Below the pieces are notes generated by a model, which saw only the letters and a list, made by a program, of their open reading frames with translations, was not told the origin of the DNA and ran no database searches. A stretch of DNA of 64,000 bases. Source: a virus. A program made the position numbers and the translations under genes. Within the stretch, counting starts at the first letter, position 1; the number at the start of each line of letters is the position of its first letter. The stretch lies in IMG/VR virus record IMGVR_UViG_3300009495_000012. The stretch is one strand, 5' to 3'. Shown piece by piece: positions 1,981 through 11,500 of this stretch.

Positions 1981-2014
1981 ATTATATATCATTTTATTAA
2001 ATATGTCAAGCGTT
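1981..2014 (-). promoter_or_regulatory. Sigma70-type (early) promoter AACGC-TTGACA-N17-TATAAT
   Basis: Perfect -35/-10 consensus with 17-nt spacer, abutting the stop codon of the 2147-aa gene. Confidence 0.85.
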
Positions 2015-5000
2015 TATGCTACTCTTACATATAATGTATAGGTATCGATTACTTCGGTACCCGAATTTAGGGTTGTCCCCACATAGTTACCAACAAAGTT
2101 ACGTGAGTAATTACCCACGAAGTTTCTTGCATAGTCACCCGCAAATGTTCTTGAATAGTTTCCTATAAAGTCTCCAACGTATTCACCTGCAAATGTTCTT
2201 GAATAGTTTCCTGTAAAGTCACGGGCATAGTCACCTACAAATCCTCTTGTATAATCCCCAGTAAAATCTCCTACAAAATCTGTTTCCCTGTTTCTTGTAT
2301 AGTTAGCAGAGAATGCAGAAATTCTTGTACGTGAGTATATAGACACACGGGTACGAGCAGATATACGAGTTGAGTTACGAGAGTAATTACCTACAAATGT
2401 TCTTGAATAGTTACCCACATAGGAAGATATTCTGGTACGTGTTGATATACGTGAATATTCTCCTGCAAATGCACGAGAGTAATTACCTGTGAAGTCCCCA
2501 ATGAATGCCGAGATACGAGTACGTAACGAGGTTCTGGTATACTCTCCAAGGAAGTTACGAGTATAGTTACCAACGTATGAAGATACTCTGGTACGTGTTG
2601 ATACCCGTGTGTACTCTCCTGCAAAATCTCTTGTGTAGTTACCAATAAAGTTACCTAAGAAGTTTGAGTTACGTACACGAGTTGATGTGCGTGTGTATTC
2701 TCCAAGGAATCCACGAGTGTAATCACCAGTGAAGTTACCTGCATAATTGGATACACGAGTTCTTAATGATGTTCTGGTATAATTACCCACAAATGTGCGT
2801 GTGTAGTTTCCAGTAAATTCACCTGCATAACTTGATACTCTGGTACGGGTAGAGTTTCTTGTGTACTCTCCCACAAATCCACGGGCATAATTACCTATGT
2901 AATCTCCTGCGAATCCTCTGGCATAGTTACCAACAAATCCTCTTGCAAAGTTTCCTACGTAATCTCCTACGTAATCGGTAACACGTGTTCTGGAATACTC
3001 ACCTGCAAATGCACGAGAGTAGTTACCTACGAATGTACGAGAATAGTTTCCTGTGTAGTTACCTGCAAATGGTCGAGTGTATTCTCCAGATGTAGCAATC
3101 ATCTCTGCAACGGTAGGTATATCTGCATGAGTAGTGTCATCTACACGAGGTTCCCAGAACTGTTGATGTGTATTGGTATCAGTTGAGTAATACAAATAAC
3201 AACGATGTCTTGCTGTGGTATTATTCGATTTCCATATGTAATCGAGGTAAACATCTTGAATTTTCTCACCTGCTATATTGTATATACCAGATTCAGCATC
3301 CATAGCACCAGACTCAACTGTTGTTCCATATGGCCATACATGACCTACCAACAAGAACCATTCGTCATGATGTCCATTTTCGAAAATGTTTTTACCATAC
3401 CAGAAGTATGGGTTTCCAGCCGGCCCGTAGGCACCACTGACATTTTTTCTATCTACACCATCACCATTAGCATTTAAACCAAAATATGCATCTCCGTTAC
3501 CGAGAGTCTTACGTTTTACCCACACAGAGAACCTATATTTTTTAGTCTTGTCTATATTAAAATAATCACCATTCCAACCACCGTCTGCGTTTGAGTCAGC
3601 ATCTTGTTGATCAATATCCCAGACAACATCTTGACCTTTCGGAGACTCATCTACCAAACGTGAGTTACCATCACCATTCTGAGGATAACCTGTAGTGGAT
3701 CCAGTACCTACTGCCCACTTTGGGAATCCAGAGTTGTTGGCAGGGGATAATTGATTAGAACGATCACTGTAACGAGTTCCAGTTGTACCTATAAATGTTA
3801 CTAAACTATCACGTGTTGATGTTCTGCTATAGTTACCTACGAAGTCTCTGGAATAGTTTCCAATATAGTCTCCTGCAAATCCTCTTGCATAGTTACCAAT
3901 AAAGGTTCTTGAATAGTTTCCTGCATATGTTGATACACGTGCACGTGTTGAGTTACGAGAGTAATCTCCTACAAAGTTTCTTGAGTAGTTGCCAAGGAAG
4001 TTTCCTGCAAAGTTTGTTACACGATCTCTTGCATATGCAGATACACGGTTTCTTGAATATGCAGATACACGGTTACGAGTGTATGCACTATAACGTGTAC
4101 GTGCTGATATTCTGGTATAGTCACCAGTAAAGTTACCTAAGTAATCCCCTGCGAATAATCGTGTATAATCTCCAGTGAAGTTACCTGCATATATGCGTGA
4201 ATAGTTACCAACATAATTAGACACACGAGTTCTTGTGCTGATACGTGTGTATGCAGAACTTCTTGTTCTGGTTGATGTACGATTATATGTACTTATTCTA
4301 TTACGTGCGAATGTTGAAGACCTTCCACGTGTGTATGCAGAACTTCGAGATCTCGTTGATATACGAGCATAGGCACTATACCTATTTTGAATACGCAATC
4401 TGGTATATGCCGAACTACGAACCCTTGTAGACGTACGGGCATACGCACTATACCTATTCGCAATACGTAGTCGTGTGTAAGCACTTATTCTATTACGTGT
4501 ACTTATTCTTGTTGAGTCACGAAAATATGCTGATACTCTATTTTGAATGCGTAATCTTGTGTAAGAACTTATTCTGTTACGAGAGTAGTTACCAATAAAG
4601 TTACGTGAATAGTTACCAATAAAGTTACCAGTATAGTAACCTATACGTGTAAAGTAATTTGTTCTGGTACTTGTAGCAATACGCAATCTAGTATAGTTGC
4701 CAAGGAAGTTACCACCAAATGCAATGATACGAGTAAATGCATTAGACCTTGTACTGGTTGCGATACGTAATCTGGTATAGTTACCAGTGAAGTTTCCTGC
4801 GTAGTTACGTGCATAGTTACCAGTGTAATATAGTGTACGAGTATAGTCACCGATATAATATAGTGTACGAGTATAGTTACCTGTGTAGTTACCAGTGTAG
4901 TATAACGTACGGGAATAGTTACCAAGATAGTTACCGATATAACTTGCAATACGGTTACGTGTATAGTTACCGAGGAAGTTACCGATATAACTTGCGATAC

Positions 5001-8000
5001 GAAGTCTGGTGTAGGTACCAGTACCAGTACCTATATTAATACGAAGTCTGGTGTATATACCAGTCGGTGTACTTGTTCTTGTTGATATACGAGTGTAGTA
5101 TCCAGTACGAGTATAGTTGCCAGTAAAATATCTTAGATAGTTACCAAGGAAGTTACCAGTATAGTAAGCGGGGCCTAAGAAGTCAATTGGTTCTCCACTC
5201 TTGGCACCAATACGAACGTAAAATTGTTCTCCCACACTGACACGTGTAGATATACGTGTATAGGCGGGTGTGCTGGATCTTGTATAATACAAAGTACGTG
5301 TGTAGTTACCAGTGAAGTTACCTGCATAATACAAAGTACGTGAATAGTTACCAAGATAGTTACCAGTATAATACAGAGTACGAGTATAGTTACCAAGATA
5401 AGATCCAATACGGTTCGCAATACGTAGTCGTGTATAGTTGCCGAGATAACCCGTAATACGGTTTACAAGACGCAATCTTGTGTAGATACCAGTATTAGTA
5501 CTAATGGCAATACGTAATCTTGTGTAGATACCAGTATTAGTACTAATGGCAATACGTAATCTTGTGTAGTCACCAGTTGCAGTACGTGTTCTGTTATATG
5601 TTCCCGTAGCAGTTCGAATACGAATATATGCACTACTACGAGTACGTGTTGATATACGGGTATAGTTGCCTAAGTAGTTACCAATATAGGAATCAATACG
5701 GGCATAGTAATGCGTTGAGTTACGAGTACGTGTTGATAAACGGGTGTAGTTGCCTAAGTAGTTACCAGTATAGTAATCAGTACGTGTGTATGCATCTATT
5801 CGTGTGGATGCACGGGTAGAGTCACGTGTGTATGCACGGTTAGATGTTCTGGCATAGTTACCAAGGAATCCACGTGTATAGTTACCCGTATAGTTACCTA
5901 CAAACGTACGTACATAGTTACCTAAATAATTACCAAGGTAGTTTCCTGCGAATCCACGTGCATAGTTACCCGTATAGTTACCAGTAAATAAACGTGAATA
6001 GTTGCCTACGTAATCACCTGCATAGTTTCTTGCATAGTTTCCTGTATAGTTACCGACAAACAGTCTGGAATAGTTACCTGTATAGTTTCCTGCAAACGCA
6101 CGAGCATAGTTACCAGTGAATATACGTGCGTAGTTTCCTGCGAATCCACGTGCATAGTTTCCTACAAAGTCCCCTGCATAGTTTCTTGCATAGTTACCTG
6201 TATAGTTTCCTGCAAAACTCTGCTGTGTTGTACGGGTATATGCACTACTTCTATTTCTTGTTGATAGTCTTGTATAGTTAGAAGTCCTTGCTCTGGTAGA
6301 CGTACGTATGGATATACGTGTGTAGTTACCTGTATAGTTTCCTGCAAACGCACGAGCATAGTTACCTACAAAGGTTCTACTATAGTTACCTACAAACGTA
6401 CGTGCATAGTTACCAATAAAGTTACCCGCAAAGTTTGTTACTCTATCACGAGTGTATGCTGATACACGAGTCCTTGAATAGTTTCCTATAAAGTCACCCG
6501 TGAATGTACGTGATGATGTACGTGTGTAAGTACTATTTCTTGTTCTGGCATATGTTGATATACGGTTACGTGTGGAGTTACGTGAATATGCACTTACCCT
6601 TGTACGGACATAGTCACCAATATAATCACCTGCATAACCAGTAACATCATCACGTGTGTATGAACTGTTTCGTGTACGTGTTGATACACGAGAGTATGCA
6701 CTGCCTCTGTTACGTGAGTATGCACTAATACGAGTACGGGCATAATCCCCAACAAAGTTCCCCAGATAGTTTCCTGCGAAGTTTGTGGCATATGTGCTGA
6801 TACGTGTTCTGGCATATGTTGATATACGAGTACGTGTCGAATTACGTGAGTATGTGCTAATACGAGTACGAGCATAATCCCCAATATAATCCCCTGCGAA
6901 ATCTCTTGTACTTGTTCTTGCAGACAATCTGGTATATGCTGATACTCTATCACGTGTGTAATCACCTACATAATCACCCGCAAAATCTCTTGTTGACGTA
7001 CGTGTAGATAATCTGGTATAATTTGATATACGAGTTCTTGTGTAGTTACCTACATAGTCACCTGCATACGCAGACACACGGGTACGAAGAGAATCACGAG
7101 TATACGCAGACACACGAGTACGTGCATAGTCTCCAGTGTAGTCTCCTGCGAAGTTTCTTGTTGATGTTCTGGTATATGCTGATACACGAGTACGGGTATA
7201 ATTACCTAAATAGTTTCCACCATAAGCAGAGTTACGAGTACGAAGAGAATTACGAGTGTATGCCGATATGCGAATCCTTGCATAGTTTCCAGTGTATTCT
7301 CCCGCAAATGATTGTTGTGTTGTGCGAGTGTATGCTGATACTCTATTACGTACGTATTCTCCAATGAAGTCACCACCGTATTCTCCTGCAAACCCACGAG
7401 TATATTCTCCTACAAAACCTCTGTTGTAGTTACCAACATAGTCCCCTGCGAAATCCCCAGTAAATGTCTGTAAACTATTTCTTGTATAGTTGGATACACG
7501 AGTCCTATTGTAGACACTGTTTCTAATAACAACATAGTTCGAACTACGGGTTCTACTGAATGTCTCTAAACGGTTACGGGTAAATTCTCTTGTGCTTGTA
7601 CGTGCATAGTTAGATCCACGGGTACGTGAATATGATGAGACACGTGTACGTGCATACGCAACTTCAGAGGTTGTTCTTTTTGTGTTGGTGGCAGTACCAC
7701 GTGCCGCCCAAGTACCTGCATCTGTTGGACTACCTTGAGTGGCAGATCTTAATTGATATGATCCAATGTTTCCACCAATAGCACGTTGAGTTTTAACATG
7801 TTGTCCCAATGAGTATTTAATTTGTGCATCACCCATTTCAGTGATACCAGAGAATGCTCCTGCACTATCAACATTAAGACCATTCAAAGATACAGGTTGC
7901 ACCGTAGTGGGTGCGGTCATTGTCTGTCTTTCATATAGATTAGTAACAGTAGATGTACCGTTACCTAAAGTATCTGTGAAAATGTTTGCGGTATGCTCTG

Positions 8001-8457
8001 CCCAGTCTGCACTTGGAGCAGATGTACCCATACGGAATGCGCCTGGATATTCAGATGTTTCGATACGAGATAATAAACGATTGGATAATGTTGCCATATC
8101 ACTATCGTTCATCTCATAGAAATCACCATTATGGAATCCTATAGGTCTACGATAATGACTTTGAGTAGTATCTGCCGCTCCGTTTCTTATTTGACGAAGG
8201 TTGTATGAGGTTTGACCAGACGTAATTGCTGTTACTGGGTGAGTACCATCTGCTTCGTTGTAGTAAGTATCAACAAATGTACCAATAAGAGTACCACCAT
8301 TATCACCTGCTTTTAACGTACCTGCGGAGTTTACACCTGCCGCCGCTAATCGCAGACCTGCTTGATACGCCAGATAGTTTTCTTCTGTAGGAGACATCTC
8401 CTTCAGATCACCGTTGGTGCCTTCTAACTTTAGCGGTATATTAGATTTCGTTGCCAC
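2014..8457 (-). CDS. Giant self-complementary tetrapeptide-repeat virion fibre protein (2147 aa) with inserted carbohydrate-binding-like domain
   Basis: About 265-aa N-terminal domain and C-terminal TYTLYVRxA shared with 8527..11946; about 1600 aa of Y/F-x-G-N/D/E, Y-x-R-x and R/S-x-S/R-x units; late promoter upstream; located at the end of the baseplate/fibre module. Confidence 0.8.
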   Translation of the reverse strand: MATKSNIPLKLEGTNGDLKEMSPTEENYLAYQAGLRLAAAGVNSAGTLKAGDNGGTLIGTFVDTYYNEADGTHPVTAITSGQTSYNLRQIRNGAADTTQSHYRRPIGFHNGDFYEMNDSDMATLSNRLLSRIETSEYPGAFRMGTSAPSADWAEHTANIFTDTLGNGTSTVTNLYERQTMTAPTTVQPVSLNGLNVDSAGAFSGITEMGDAQIKYSLGQHVKTQRAIGGNIGSYQLRSATQGSPTDAGTWAARGTATNTKRTTSEVAYARTRVSSYSRTRGSNYARTSTREFTRNRLETFSRTRSSNYVVIRNSVYNRTRVSNYTRNSLQTFTGDFAGDYVGNYNRGFVGEYTRGFAGEYGGDFIGEYVRNRVSAYTRTTQQSFAGEYTGNYARIRISAYTRNSLRTRNSAYGGNYLGNYTRTRVSAYTRTSTRNFAGDYTGDYARTRVSAYTRDSLRTRVSAYAGDYVGNYTRTRISNYTRLSTRTSTRDFAGDYVGDYTRDRVSAYTRLSARTSTRDFAGDYIGDYARTRISTYSRNSTRTRISTYARTRISTYATNFAGNYLGNFVGDYARTRISAYSRNRGSAYSRVSTRTRNSSYTRDDVTGYAGDYIGDYVRTRVSAYSRNSTRNRISTYARTRNSTYTRTSSRTFTGDFIGNYSRTRVSAYTRDRVTNFAGNFIGNYARTFVGNYSRTFVGNYARAFAGNYTGNYTRISIRTSTRARTSNYTRLSTRNRSSAYTRTTQQSFAGNYTGNYARNYAGDFVGNYARGFAGNYARIFTGNYARAFAGNYTGNYSRLFVGNYTGNYARNYAGDYVGNYSRLFTGNYTGNYARGFAGNYLGNYLGNYVRTFVGNYTGNYTRGFLGNYARTSNRAYTRDSTRASTRIDAYTRTDYYTGNYLGNYTRLSTRTRNSTHYYARIDSYIGNYLGNYTRISTRTRSSAYIRIRTATGTYNRTRTATGDYTRLRIAISTNTGIYTRLRIAISTNTGIYTRLRLVNRITGYLGNYTRLRIANRIGSYLGNYTRTLYYTGNYLGNYSRTLYYAGNFTGNYTRTLYYTRSSTPAYTRISTRVSVGEQFYVRIGAKSGEPIDFLGPAYYTGNFLGNYLRYFTGNYTRTGYYTRISTRTSTPTGIYTRLRINIGTGTGTYTRLRIASYIGNFLGNYTRNRIASYIGNYLGNYSRTLYYTGNYTGNYTRTLYYIGDYTRTLYYTGNYARNYAGNFTGNYTRLRIATSTRSNAFTRIIAFGGNFLGNYTRLRIATSTRTNYFTRIGYYTGNFIGNYSRNFIGNYSRNRISSYTRLRIQNRVSAYFRDSTRISTRNRISAYTRLRIANRYSAYARTSTRVRSSAYTRLRIQNRYSAYARISTRSRSSAYTRGRSSTFARNRISTYNRTSTRTRSSAYTRISTRTRVSNYVGNYSRIYAGNFTGDYTRLFAGDYLGNFTGDYTRISARTRYSAYTRNRVSAYSRNRVSAYARDRVTNFAGNFLGNYSRNFVGDYSRNSTRARVSTYAGNYSRTFIGNYARGFAGDYIGNYSRDFVGNYSRTSTRDSLVTFIGTTGTRYSDRSNQLSPANNSGFPKWAVGTGSTTGYPQNGDGNSRLVDESPKGQDVVWDIDQQDADSNADGGWNGDYFNIDKTKKYRFSVWVKRKTLGNGDAYFGLNANGDGVDRKNVSGAYGPAGNPYFWYGKNIFENGHHDEWFLLVGHVWPYGTTVESGAMDAESGIYNIAGEKIQDVYLDYIWKSNNTTARHRCYLYYSTDTNTHQQFWEPRVDDTTHADIPTVAEMIATSGEYTRPFAGNYTGNYSRTFVGNYSRAFAGEYSRTRVTDYVGDYVGNFARGFVGNYARGFAGDYIGNYARGFVGEYTRNSTRTRVSSYAGEFTGNYTRTFVGNYTRTSLRTRVSNYAGNFTGDYTRGFLGEYTRTSTRVRNSNFLGNFIGNYTRDFAGEYTRVSTRTRVSSYVGNYTRNFLGEYTRTSLRTRISAFIGDFTGNYSRAFAGEYSRISTRTRISSYVGNYSRTFVGNYSRNSTRISARTRVSIYSRTRISAFSANYTRNRETDFVGDFTGDYTRGFVGDYARDFTGNYSRTFAGEYVGDFIGNYSRTFAGDYARNFVGNYSRNFVGNYVGTTLNSGTEVIDTYTLYVRVA
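3082..3783 (-). other. Inserted globular domain (CBM/beta-sandwich-like) within the repeat fibre
   Basis: Non-repetitive, aromatic-rich 234 aa: DGGWN..NIDKTKKYRFSVWVK..YFGL..NPYFW..DEWFLLVGHV..HRCYLYY..FWEPRVD, resembling carbohydrate-binding-like modules of phage tail proteins. Confidence 0.55.
5474..5569. repeat. Exact 42-bp tandem duplication (2.3 copies; YTRLRIAISTNTGI x2)
   Basis: aatcttgtgtagataccagtattagtactaatggcaatacgt starts at 5474 and 5516, with a partial copy at 5558. Confidence 0.95.
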
Positions 8458-8526: not shown

Positions 8527-11500
8527 CTAAGCAGTCCTTACATATAGTGTATAAGTCTCTACGTTAAATACTGTGTTACCAATAGTTTGTCCCACGTAAC
8601 TACTTACTCTGGTACGGTGATATGCTGATCCCCTTGATCTTGAGTAGTTTCCTACATAATCACCCGCATAGTTTGATCCACGGGTTCTTTGAGAGTTACG
8701 GGTAAATGCTCTTGTACTTGTACGTCCATATGAACTATTTCTGGTTCGTGAAAATACTTCGTCCCTTTCTCTTGTGTAATCCCCAACACGAGTACGATTA
8801 AAGTTTCTTGAGTAAACACCAGTATATATATCCGAATATGCTTGGGAGAAAATTGATGATCTGCCTCTAGTATAGTTGGACACACGAGTTCTACTATAAG
8901 AACTTACACGAGCACGAGTAAAACTAGAACCACGGTTTCTTGTATAGTTACCAAGGAAGTCACCTGTATAATTACCCACAAACGAACGTGTGTAATTAGA
9001 TACACGAGTACGAGCATATGAACTAACACGAGTCGGTATACTTGTACGTGTTGATGTACGTGTGTAGTTACCCAGATAGTTTCCTGCAAACGCACGAGTG
9101 TAATCACCAACGTAGTTACCTGCGAAGTTTCTAAAATAGTTACCTAAGTAGTTACCCACAAAATTACGACTAAAGTTACCAACAAAAACACCTTCCCCTG
9201 CAATTATTGATGCACCAGTACCTTGAGCACCTGCATAGTTACCTGCAAAATTTCTTGTTGATGTACGAGTATATGATGATACTCTATTACGTGTATAGTT
9301 ACGTGAATAACCACGTGCATACTCACCAACAAAAACACCTTCCTCTGCAATTATTGATGCACCAGTACCTTGAGCACCAGTATAATTACCAAGGAATGTT
9401 GATATCCTTGTACGTGTACTTGTTACAGAATTTCTAAGTCTGGTGTATGCGACTGTAGAATCTCTTAGGTAATTACGAGTACTCGATCTTGTGTATGCGA
9501 CTGTAGACTGTCTTGTATACTGATCAACTATTGTTCTGGTGTATGGAAATGCGGGGTTTCCACTTGAAGATCTTGTATATGCTCTGTTACTAGTTCTTGT
9601 AAACTGTCTGGAGAATCCAACACCAAAGTTACGTGAATAACTTGTACCAGCGAAGAAACGAGAAAAATTCATTGTGAAGTTACCAAAGTAATCACCAGTA
9701 AAGTTTGTTGGGCCAGTGTAATATTGGAACACACCTGCTTTGGGTGCAAATCGAACAAATGCCATTTCACCAATATAGTTACCAGTGAAGTTTTTGCTCG
9801 TGTCGGCGGCATAGTTACTTACACGTCCACCACGTGTATAGTGTTGAGCATTGTATGTACTCACTCGGAATTGCTGACTACTCCTCGTATAACTTTGGAA
9901 GTACGTAGTTACATAATTTACTTGAGTTGCTAGAGAATCTGTTTCATTCGTAAAGAACACGATACTGTCCATACGAGCAGATTCAATATTAGCACTTCTT
10001 GTAAACCCACGAGTATAGTCTCCAGTGTAGTCTCTTAATAGTATGTTTCTGCTATAAGTGTCTGCATATTCCCTTACATAGTTACCTGTAAAGTTCTCGA
10101 TACGAGTTATAGTATAGTTTCTGTAATATGATGATATTCTATTACGTGTATAGTTACCAACAAAAACATTTTCTCCATTTACTACCGAAGCACCAGTACC
10201 TTGAGCACCTGTATAGTTACCTGCGAAGTTACGTGAATAGTTACCAACAAAAACATTTTGGTCACTTACAACCGAAGCACCTGTGCCTTGAGCACCAGTA
10301 TAATTACCTGCAAATGCCGTGATAAAGTTACCTGCATAACTTTCAGACCTACTGCGAGTGTATGCTGTTGTAGAGTTACGACTAAAGTTGCGGAAAAACT
10401 GACGAGAATAATTACCAACAAACATACCCTCACCATCAATTATTGATGCACCAGTACCTTGAGCACCTGCATAGTTACCAGTGTAGTTTCGAGCACTTGT
10501 TCGAGTATAACCTCTTGAGTAATAATTTAGGTAATTAGAATTTCTATTCTGAATACGTAGTCGAGTATACGAAGACTCTCTGGTTCTTGTAGATGTACGG
10601 GTATATGCACTGACCCTTGTTCTTGCAGAAAGTCTTGTGTATTCTCCAACATAGTTACCTGCATAGTTACCCACGAAGTTACGTGAATAGTTACCCACGA
10701 AGCCTCTTGTATAATTCTCAAGACGGGTACGAGTAAATGCTGTGTCCCTTTCTCTCGTATAGTTTCCTGCAAACGCACGAGCATAGTTTCCTACAAAGGT
10801 TCTGCTATACTCACCTACAAAATTACGAGTGAAATCACCAGTGAAGATTCTGGTATAATTACCTACATAGTTACCTACATATTCTCCTACGTATTCACGT
10901 GCATAGTCACCAACAAAGTTACGTGTATAGTTACCTAAGTAGTCACCAGTATATTCACCCACAAATTGACGAGAGTAGTTCCCTGCATAATTACGTGAAT
11001 AGTTACCAGTGTAGTCTCCTGCGAAGTTTCTTGTTGATGTTCTGGTATAGTTATCGGAGTAATTACCTACAAATACTCTGGCATAGTCTCCTGCGAAACT
11101 ACGAGTATAACTTTGTTCATCAACAAGTCGAATAGTGTTTGTTGCGGATCCCTTTGCAGTCCAAGTTTGACCAGATACGTTTGGTGCTCCCTGCGAAGAT
11201 GTTCTTAAATCGTATGATCCAACATTACCTTGAATGGCACGTCTTGTCTTAGCACGTTGACCAATAGATTGTGTAATCTGTCTGTCTGTTAATTTCTCGA
11301 CACCTTGATATGTTCCAGTTGCACCAGAAGACCTCTTAATACCCATGATAGATGATATACCACCAACATCATTAAGGATATTAGTTGGAGCAGACATATT
11401 AGTCCTTCTCCAGATAGAATAGTCATTTACAGTATATGGATTACCAGAAGAATCAGCACGTTGATCTGTAAGAATACTTGGAACTAAAATAGTATAATCA

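Follow-up and report, generated by a model that had tools for sequence, protein, structure and literature searches.

Mirror-complementary arms in a giant phage protein: a candidate tail fibre that probably folds back on itself as one antiparallel hairpin

The virus record IMGVR_UViG_3300009495_000012 of IMG/VR was analysed as one stretch of 64,000 nucleotides, referred to here as the window. This work concerns its gene P0001, whose product of 2147 amino acids (aa) consists of an N-terminal anchor domain, two very long repeat arms joined at a short apex, and a C-terminal tail. We observed that the two arms are complementary in mirror order. It is probable that the chain folds back on itself, the arms being antiparallel partners in a defined register (i + j = 2395, where i and j are residue numbers in the two arms). 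With less assurance, we lean towards a continuous two-stranded ribbon carrying an aromatic-guanidinium ladder on one face and avoiding certain pairs (Arg:Arg, and rungs without an aromatic residue or Arg). On balance we also favour viewing the protein as a natural analogue of a nucleic-acid stem, in which a small residue-pairing alphabet would program the register of a single-chain β-ribbon.

The arms were parsed by automatic dynamic programming, with no hand editing, into tetrapeptide units of class A ([YFW]xRx), class G ([YFW]xGx) or class P (non-aromatic first residue), and the N-arm classes were globally aligned to the reversed C-arm classes under a code pairing A with A and G with P. The code was obeyed in 182 of 209 alignment columns, giving a score of 151.5, and every control failed (z = 7 to 19). 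Both the forward C-arm under the same code and the identity code on the reversed C-arm scored -12.5. Shuffling all units gave -0.7 ± 8 (z = 19), shuffling A-led blocks 26.9 ± 8.5 (z = 15), and shuffling the G and P labels alone, with the A positions fixed, 43.6 ± 9.7 (z = 11). Local block shuffles in windows of 3, 5 and 10 blocks scored 81, 79 and 55 (z = 7 to 12). Since the score drops even in the 3-block shuffles (81 ± 10, z = 7), the match is unit-precise and not a coarse compositional gradient. The original prediction, a model's reading of the letters alone, had claimed this mirror self-complementarity of tetrapeptide classes, and the claim is borne out: recoded classes score well above their shuffled controls. 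Its hand count of 184 obeying pairs out of 194 stands as regards the rule and shifts slightly as regards the numbers, because our parse is automatic; an end-anchored alignment gave 156 obeying pairs out of 169, and its longest unbroken run, 52 pairs, is the same run that had been noted by hand.

The complementarity resolves into two ungapped stems, one joining N-arm residues 272-615 with C-arm residues 1781-2124 and the other joining 604-1045 with 1119-1558. The two stems abut at a globular insert of 234 residues, so the insert would be a pure bulge in the C-arm that leaves the register undisturbed. It is placed 84 units out from the base, at about 40% of the outward length. Pairing reaches the apex, the last pair being RVSV (1072) with YTGN (1099). 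Mirrored 2-residue register shifts, a kind of feature also reported from the letters, are present in the parsed arms, among them [hy]:[gy], [ds]:[ny], [da]:[ia] and [dy]:[na]; for example, the N-arm string "P P [hy] A [ds] G G" (908-931) lies opposite the reversed C-arm string "G G [gy] A [ny] P P" (1259-1282). A finer rule holds inside the G:P pairs, where FxGx goes with RxSx and YxGx with SxRx, that is, Phe:Ser and Tyr:Arg at the residue level. A tandem duplication of 14 aa, also part of the original prediction, proved to be an exact 42-bp (base pair) repeat; its copies at 5485-5526 and 5527-5568 are identical, and the duplication has no counterpart in the C-arm. This unpartnered duplication resembles a very recent slippage event, with arm length changing one arm at a time.

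No DNA inverted repeat joining the arms was found, the only inverted matches being five short ones of 70-83%. With matches so few and short, a DNA-level origin of the mirror was rejected. Reverse-complementation of a codon does not, moreover, convert a class into its partner.

The arms consist of 15% Arg, 14% Thr, 13% Tyr, 10% Gly, 10% Ser and 9% Asn, and are devoid of Lys, Cys, Trp and Met. Among the 1604 arm residues 0.1% are His, and no HxH iron-binding site is present. Asp and Glu together amount to 4% against 15% Arg, which gives a net charge of about +180 per chain. Positions 2 and 4 of the units carry small residues, and the order of units is irregular (AP, AGG, APP, AGGG and others).

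P0001 belongs to a large family. A search of 5.8 billion proteins yielded 96 relatives, with matches down to an expectation value (E) of 2e-190, and a full HMMER scan with the tandem paralogue P0098 as query matched about 577 clusters. Among 50,697 deposited phage genomes the sole match was a 3347-aa "hypothetical protein" of phage C48C1 (family Kyanoviridae), 44% identical to P0001 over residues 1-327. The 98 complete members in our sample range from 404 to 4046 aa, and all have the anchor domain and a C-terminal TYTLYVR strand. In P0001 the motif TYTLYV(R) occupies residues 2139-2145, at a fixed distance past the last unit, and T2139, Y2140, L2142 and Y2143 are invariant. None of the members is named and none has a Pfam family in its arms; the P0001 family had no match in Pfam at E ≤ 1 or among PDB sequences at E ≤ 10.

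Mirror complementarity recurs in other members. The anchored complement score was 36 for P0098 against 14 ± 3.6 and 4 ± 3.3 for its shuffles, 23 for P0004 against shuffle means of 4-13, and 88 for the C48C1 protein against 36-46. The N-arms of P0098 and P0004 begin G-rich and that of P0001 begins P-rich, and the trait conserved in these comparisons is complementarity, unit order not being conserved. Between the close relatives P0099 and P0003, paired swaps from P:G to G:P were found at units 2 and 4, which are compensated class switches of the kind expected if the arms pair.

Because conserved motifs lie at fixed distances from both ends of the arms, units could be paired without gaps by matching the kth unit counted from the anchor with the kth counted back from the tail. 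In this ungapped test, across 65 distinct patterns, the code was obeyed on average at 7.15 of 11 positions when a protein's arms were its own and at 4.48 ± 1.94 when arms were exchanged between proteins. The own-arm mean was reached in 0 of 20000 permutations, and a first set of 19 patterns agreed. Single positions alternate between P:G, G:P and A:A with few exceptions. At the residue level, corrected mutual information on the antidiagonal i + j = 2395 was 0.101 against a permuted null of 0.006 ± 0.007 (81 sequences), with odd neighbouring offsets weaker and even offsets near zero. Covariation on a single diagonal and of one parity reads as the signature of same-face neighbours on two antiparallel strands. 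The commonest cross-arm residue pairs were Tyr:Arg, Arg:Tyr, Ser:Phe, Arg:Gly and Ser:Gly, together with Tyr:Gly, and extra couplings were seen at neighbouring unit offsets. A log-odds matrix trained on P0001 alone gave z > 3 in 33 of 97 other members and z > 5 in 18 of them, and P0098 reached z = 13.4.

Two structure predictions support a hairpin that is closed at its base; both place the C-terminal strand antiparallel against the strand that precedes the N-arm. An AlphaFold2 model of the 436-aa member P0102, computed from a 72-sequence alignment, had a predicted local distance difference test (pLDDT) value of 77 and a predicted template modelling (pTM) score of 0.70, with the anchor above 90. 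Long strands were modelled at residues 260-292 and 400-434; they fit the covariation register, and their confidence is 90-98 in the blocks near the base and drops away within three or four units. In a second prediction, ESMFold2 was given P0001 residues 1-399 and 1997-2147 as split chains, each with a custom-built alignment. The split chains scored 0.84 (runs 0.84, 0.87 and 0.84) against 0.02 for the best control; in calibration, which is approximate for custom alignments, the threshold was reached by 58 of 80 solved complexes, compared with 2 of 110 mismatched pairs. The pLDDT of the partner was 41-48, and the runs shared 42-55% of their contacts. The confident interface joins residues 2122-2147 to 229-270 in antiparallel fashion at i + j of about 2395-2396, and its contacts extrapolate to the pair of first and last units within one residue. 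Foldseek found no match to the P0102 model in PDB or BFVD at E ≤ 0.001, and the fold matches in AFDB and Atlas were exclusively uncharacterized members of the family. Branched, cloverleaf-like pairing in P0102 was considered and rejected, as the counts were too low to carry it and the strands of the AlphaFold2 model agree with a simple end-anchored register. The antiparallel hairpin with Tyr/Arg and Gly/(Arg,Ser) pairing, as originally proposed, is thus supported by covariation, by the homologues and by two predictions of base closure.

Several observations weigh against a paired hairpin, or against its extension along whole arms and across the whole family. About two thirds of the members do not score under the P0001-specific code; these probably follow other pair rules, or lie out of frame with the fixed anchor, as the C48C1 protein does. 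The three-class code, in local or anchored alignment, gave z of about 0-3 (not significant) for the P0009, P0022 and P0021 groups. Kinship among the homologues inflates the permutation statistics. The predicted three-dimensional contacts reach no further than two to four units into either arm: the confident interface of the split-chain prediction ends at residues 270 and 2122, and residues 292-402 of the P0102 model have pLDDT < 50. The split-chain contact list on its own does not choose between i + j = 2395 and 2396, and the predictions, being built on custom alignments, are not independent of the covariation signal. A single-sequence AlphaFold2 run on the tip (residues 940-1240), a truncation of the kind suggested with the original prediction, reached a pLDDT of 28.7 and was uninformative. 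To our knowledge, a two-stranded ribbon of about 800 residues with a net charge near +180 is without precedent, and it may need partners.

Subfamilies with other arm compositions were also observed. P0022, P0026 and P0032 (2503-3756 aa) form an acidic-arm subfamily with Tyr/Asp/Glu/Gly units in place of Arg-rich ones, and the arms of the P0009 group are rich in Lys and Thr. The pairing rules of these subfamilies, if any, differ from those of P0001.

The anchor domain offers a possible origin for the hairpin. It is built of three homologous repeats, in each of which an 'xEMxD' helix leads into a β-hairpin, and a single chain thus has pseudo-threefold symmetry. On sub-alignments, hhalign related repeat 2 to repeat 3 with a probability of 91% (E 1e-6) and repeat 1 to repeat 2 with 51% (E 1.5e-4), and the repeat alignment directly spans the outgoing strand of the hairpin. 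On our interpretation of the alignment, the return strand of repeat 2 (consensus YNIYxR) appears to match the C-terminal TYTLYVR strand in both placement and form. The fibre would be the third-repeat hairpin, lengthened by about 140 to 3800 residues depending on the family member. The anchor domain had no Pfam match; its comparison with the MABP / MACPF-C-terminal β-prism by VIA-align gave Z 5.7-6.0 over 113-124 residues, which is within the range of chance matches. In the metagenomic member P0002 (1798 aa), FG-GAP-like repeats and Laminin_G_3 (PF14312, PF13385) are inserted within the anchor domain, which suggests that this domain too tolerates cargo.

We propose the following fold for P0001. 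The β-hairpin of the anchor's third repeat would be enormously stretched: the chain would run out for about 800 residues as the N-arm, turn at the 23-residue apex, and run back antiparallel for about 800 residues as the C-arm, with the 234-residue globular domain as a bulge, and end with a strand, TYTLYVR, that rejoins the anchor domain. In such an out-and-back fibre the distal tip would correspond to the middle of the sequence. The arms would be β-strands with a 4-residue unit whose positions 1 and 3 lie on one face, and position 1 of an N-arm unit would stand opposite position 3 of its C-arm partner, and vice versa, at i + j = 2395. Allowed rungs would be Tyr:Arg, Phe:Ser, Gly:Arg and Gly:Ser, so that at the unit level YxRx would face YxRx and (F/Y)xGx would face (R/S)x(S/R)x. 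The rungs probably form one continuous aromatic-guanidinium (cation-π) ladder that fixes the register, and β-ribbon pairing may extend over the full length. We further propose that the arms evolve by compensated swaps and duplications, as RNA stems do, and that fibre length thus varies about ten-fold across the family. Bulged cargo domains would be tolerated, and phages could tune fibre length and place receptor-binding modules at will.

The strongest alternative is a trimeric needle, in which three out-and-back chains would form a six-stranded antiparallel tube resembling an extended T4 gp37, and the code would reflect six-strand packing. Phage fibres are usually trimers and the chains of the gp37 needle run out and back; the couplings at neighbouring unit offsets could reflect a second, inter-chain neighbour, and the small residues at positions 2 and 4 could line a narrow core. 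Against these points stands the anchor, whose three-repeat pseudo-threefold would let a single chain fill a threefold site and makes a monomeric fibre and a trimer equally plausible. The arms, with 15% Arg, 0.1% His and no HxH iron-binding sites, speak in the same direction. We regard the needle as possible but rather unlikely, and given the pseudo-threefold anchor and the very high positive charge, a trimer is less certain than had originally been assumed.

It is quite improbable that the arms run antiparallel in a larger bundle without touching, their complementarity recording a requirement for a constant composition, one aromatic residue and one Arg, at every level along the axis. The covariation falls sharply on one residue diagonal with opposite-parity offsets near zero, a finer rule puts F with S and Y with R inside the pairs, and the predictions pair both strands directly at the base. 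Such a bundle would gain from the very high net positive charge of the arms and from the fact that we infer direct contact between them and do not see it. Pairing between two antiparallel chains, giving a rod with an anchor domain at each end, is in our judgement highly improbable: mirror complementarity and covariation alone do not separate a hairpin from such a duplex, but a fibre needs one attached and one free end, the pairing runs up to a short conserved apex of 23 residues, AlphaFold2, given a single chain, closes the base intramolecularly, and the tail strand completes the chain's own third repeat. Lastly, an artefact of repeat composition, DNA inverted duplication or chance is refuted by the controls run, for although the low-complexity A-x-A-x rhythm gives partial matches (the A-fixed shuffle still scores 44), the score of 151.5 lies above every control including the shuffles in three-block windows, the forward and identity codes fail, no inverted DNA repeat exists, and the pattern recurs in homologues with different unit orders.

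The hairpin that we favour can be compared with several known systems. The nearest is the out-and-back needle, or tip domain, of the T4 long tail fibre protein gp37 (PDB 2XGF), which is about ten times shorter. Its chains run out to the receptor-binding tip and back over about 70 residues per leg in an obligate trimer with His-x-His iron sites. P0001 would share with it the out-and-back chain, the tip internal to the sequence and the antiparallel legs. P0001 differs in having about 800 residues per leg (about 60 to 1900 across the family) and almost no His, in that its register would come from a covarying Tyr:Arg / Phe:Ser / Gly:(Arg,Ser) code, and in that the whole fibre would be the hairpin, whereas in gp37 only the tip is. 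Neither sequence nor fold likeness of the P0001 family to gp37 or to known fibre families was found in Pfam, in PDB or by Foldseek against PDB and BFVD.

Tryptophan zippers, aromatic-Gly 'rescue' pairs, cation-π pairs and the single-layer β-sheet of OspA span 12 to about 50 residues. As proposed for P0001, they have two antiparallel strands, side-chain pairs on one face and no conventional hydrophobic core; in contrast to P0001, they occur in designed peptides or as parts of globular proteins. We know of none with a repeated class-complementary code over hundreds of residues and compensatory evolution. The triple-stranded β-helix of the T4 gp5C/gp12 type has an 8-residue VxGxxxxx repeat, a fixed repeat length, and parallel chains in register. 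P0001 resembles it as a phage tail protein with a Gly-containing short-period repeat, but its arms are mirror-complementary (forward -12.5 against 151.5) and its irregular unit order argues against a fixed-period β-helix.

RNA stem-loops provide an analogy. Common to both are mirror halves, pairing kept in preference to sequence, compensated substitutions, bulges (the 234-aa domain and the 14-aa duplication), mirrored small insertions, and the same ambiguity between hairpin and duplex. In P0001, unlike RNA, the units are tetrapeptides or residue pairs, the A class pairs with itself, and pairing is looser, G:G and A:G being tolerated in some subfamilies. No description of the family or of such a pairing code was found in the literature searched. 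Within a functional class that is itself familiar, the arrangement would be a new structural principle.

The coordinates of the fibre gene, its parts and the neighbouring genes are collected in Table 1.

Table 1. Features of P0001 and its surroundings in the window
Feature	Position	Strand	Evidence or remark
Fibre gene P0001, 2147 aa, GTG start	2014-8457	minus	Open reading frame list and translation
Anchor domain, residues 1-267	7657-8457	minus	Three homologous alpha/beta repeats
N-arm, residues 268-1075, tetrapeptide units outward from the anchor	5233-7656	minus	Parse and mirror alignment
Exact 42-bp tandem duplication (14 aa x 2), N-arm near the tip	5485-5568	minus	Tandem Repeats Finder
Apex (putative turn), residues 1076-1098, symmetry centre, non-repeat, 23 residues	5164-5232	minus	
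C-arm inner part, residues 1099-1558, complements N-arm 604-1045	3784-5163	minus	Ungapped stem, score 103
Globular insert, residues 1559-1792, 234 aa	3082-3783	minus	Bulge in the C-arm
C-arm outer part, residues 1793-2128, complements N-arm 272-615	2074-3081	minus	Ungapped stem, score 68
C-terminal tail, residues 2129-2147, with the family-wide TYTLYVR strand	2017-2073	minus	
Tandem paralogue P0098, 1139 aa	8527-11946	minus	Architecture as P0001, opposite G/P polarity
Three small genes (162, 259 and 232 aa) downstream of P0001	41-1954	minus	Travel with the fibre gene in relatives

P0001 lies inside a T4-like baseplate/tail module. Upstream of it on the minus strand are P0098, a 1059-aa gp5-like β-helix protein (two genes from P0001), a 1970-aa DUF4815 protein, and T4-type baseplate wedge and hub genes. 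The N-terminus of P0001 aligns with those of its homologues, including the C48C1 protein, which also starts with GTG, and the gene context around the fibre gene is conserved in relatives. We think it likely that P0001 is a virion fibre of a T4-like (Kyanoviridae-like) phage, within a large unnamed protein family. From this context, host recognition may be carried out by the apex together with the bulged domain. P0001 shares the apex motif with P0098 and P0003 only. The globular insert had no Pfam match at E ≤ 0.1 and no usable PDB sequence match; its look-alikes in Atlas are viral hypothetical proteins, with a CBM_4_9 cluster at rank 18 (language-model score 0.93). The insert is possibly carbohydrate-binding, which we offer as a lead.

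The products of the three downstream genes are 46-66% identical by BLASTP to the trio behind the C48C1 homologue and 38-50% identical to the trio behind a homologue on the metagenomic contig L004, and the order of the genes is kept in both. The 162-aa product is highly charged and helix-like. Every Pfam match to the three proteins was too weak for use. These genes may be candidate fibre assembly or modification factors.

Contig L004 (5761-13597) also carries two tandem family members, of 1412 and 1198 aa, arranged as in the window and flanked by a DUF4815 giant protein and the T4 gp13/gp14 neck genes. In P0098, 87-bp tandem repeats at 10142-10332 of the window (minus strand) encode a module of about 15 residues, AQGTGAS..GE..F, that does not follow the period of 4; the N-arm holds three of these modules and the C-arm two, and they may be small side knobs.

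If the hairpin reading is true, P0001 would represent both a new virus-fibre architecture and a new principle of protein folding, in which long-range strand register is written in a complementary code that can be read from sequence and checked by covariation, as in RNA. A family member of 436 residues, P0102, offers a direct test of this reading. The rules found here would also be a natural rule set for the design of programmable β-ribbons. For the phages themselves, the reading would account for the build of hundreds of "hypothetical" giant proteins in marine T4-like phages, and gene length would predict fibre length over a ten-fold range. Host prediction would be affected as well, since the receptor-binding parts would be found mid-sequence and not at the C-terminus.

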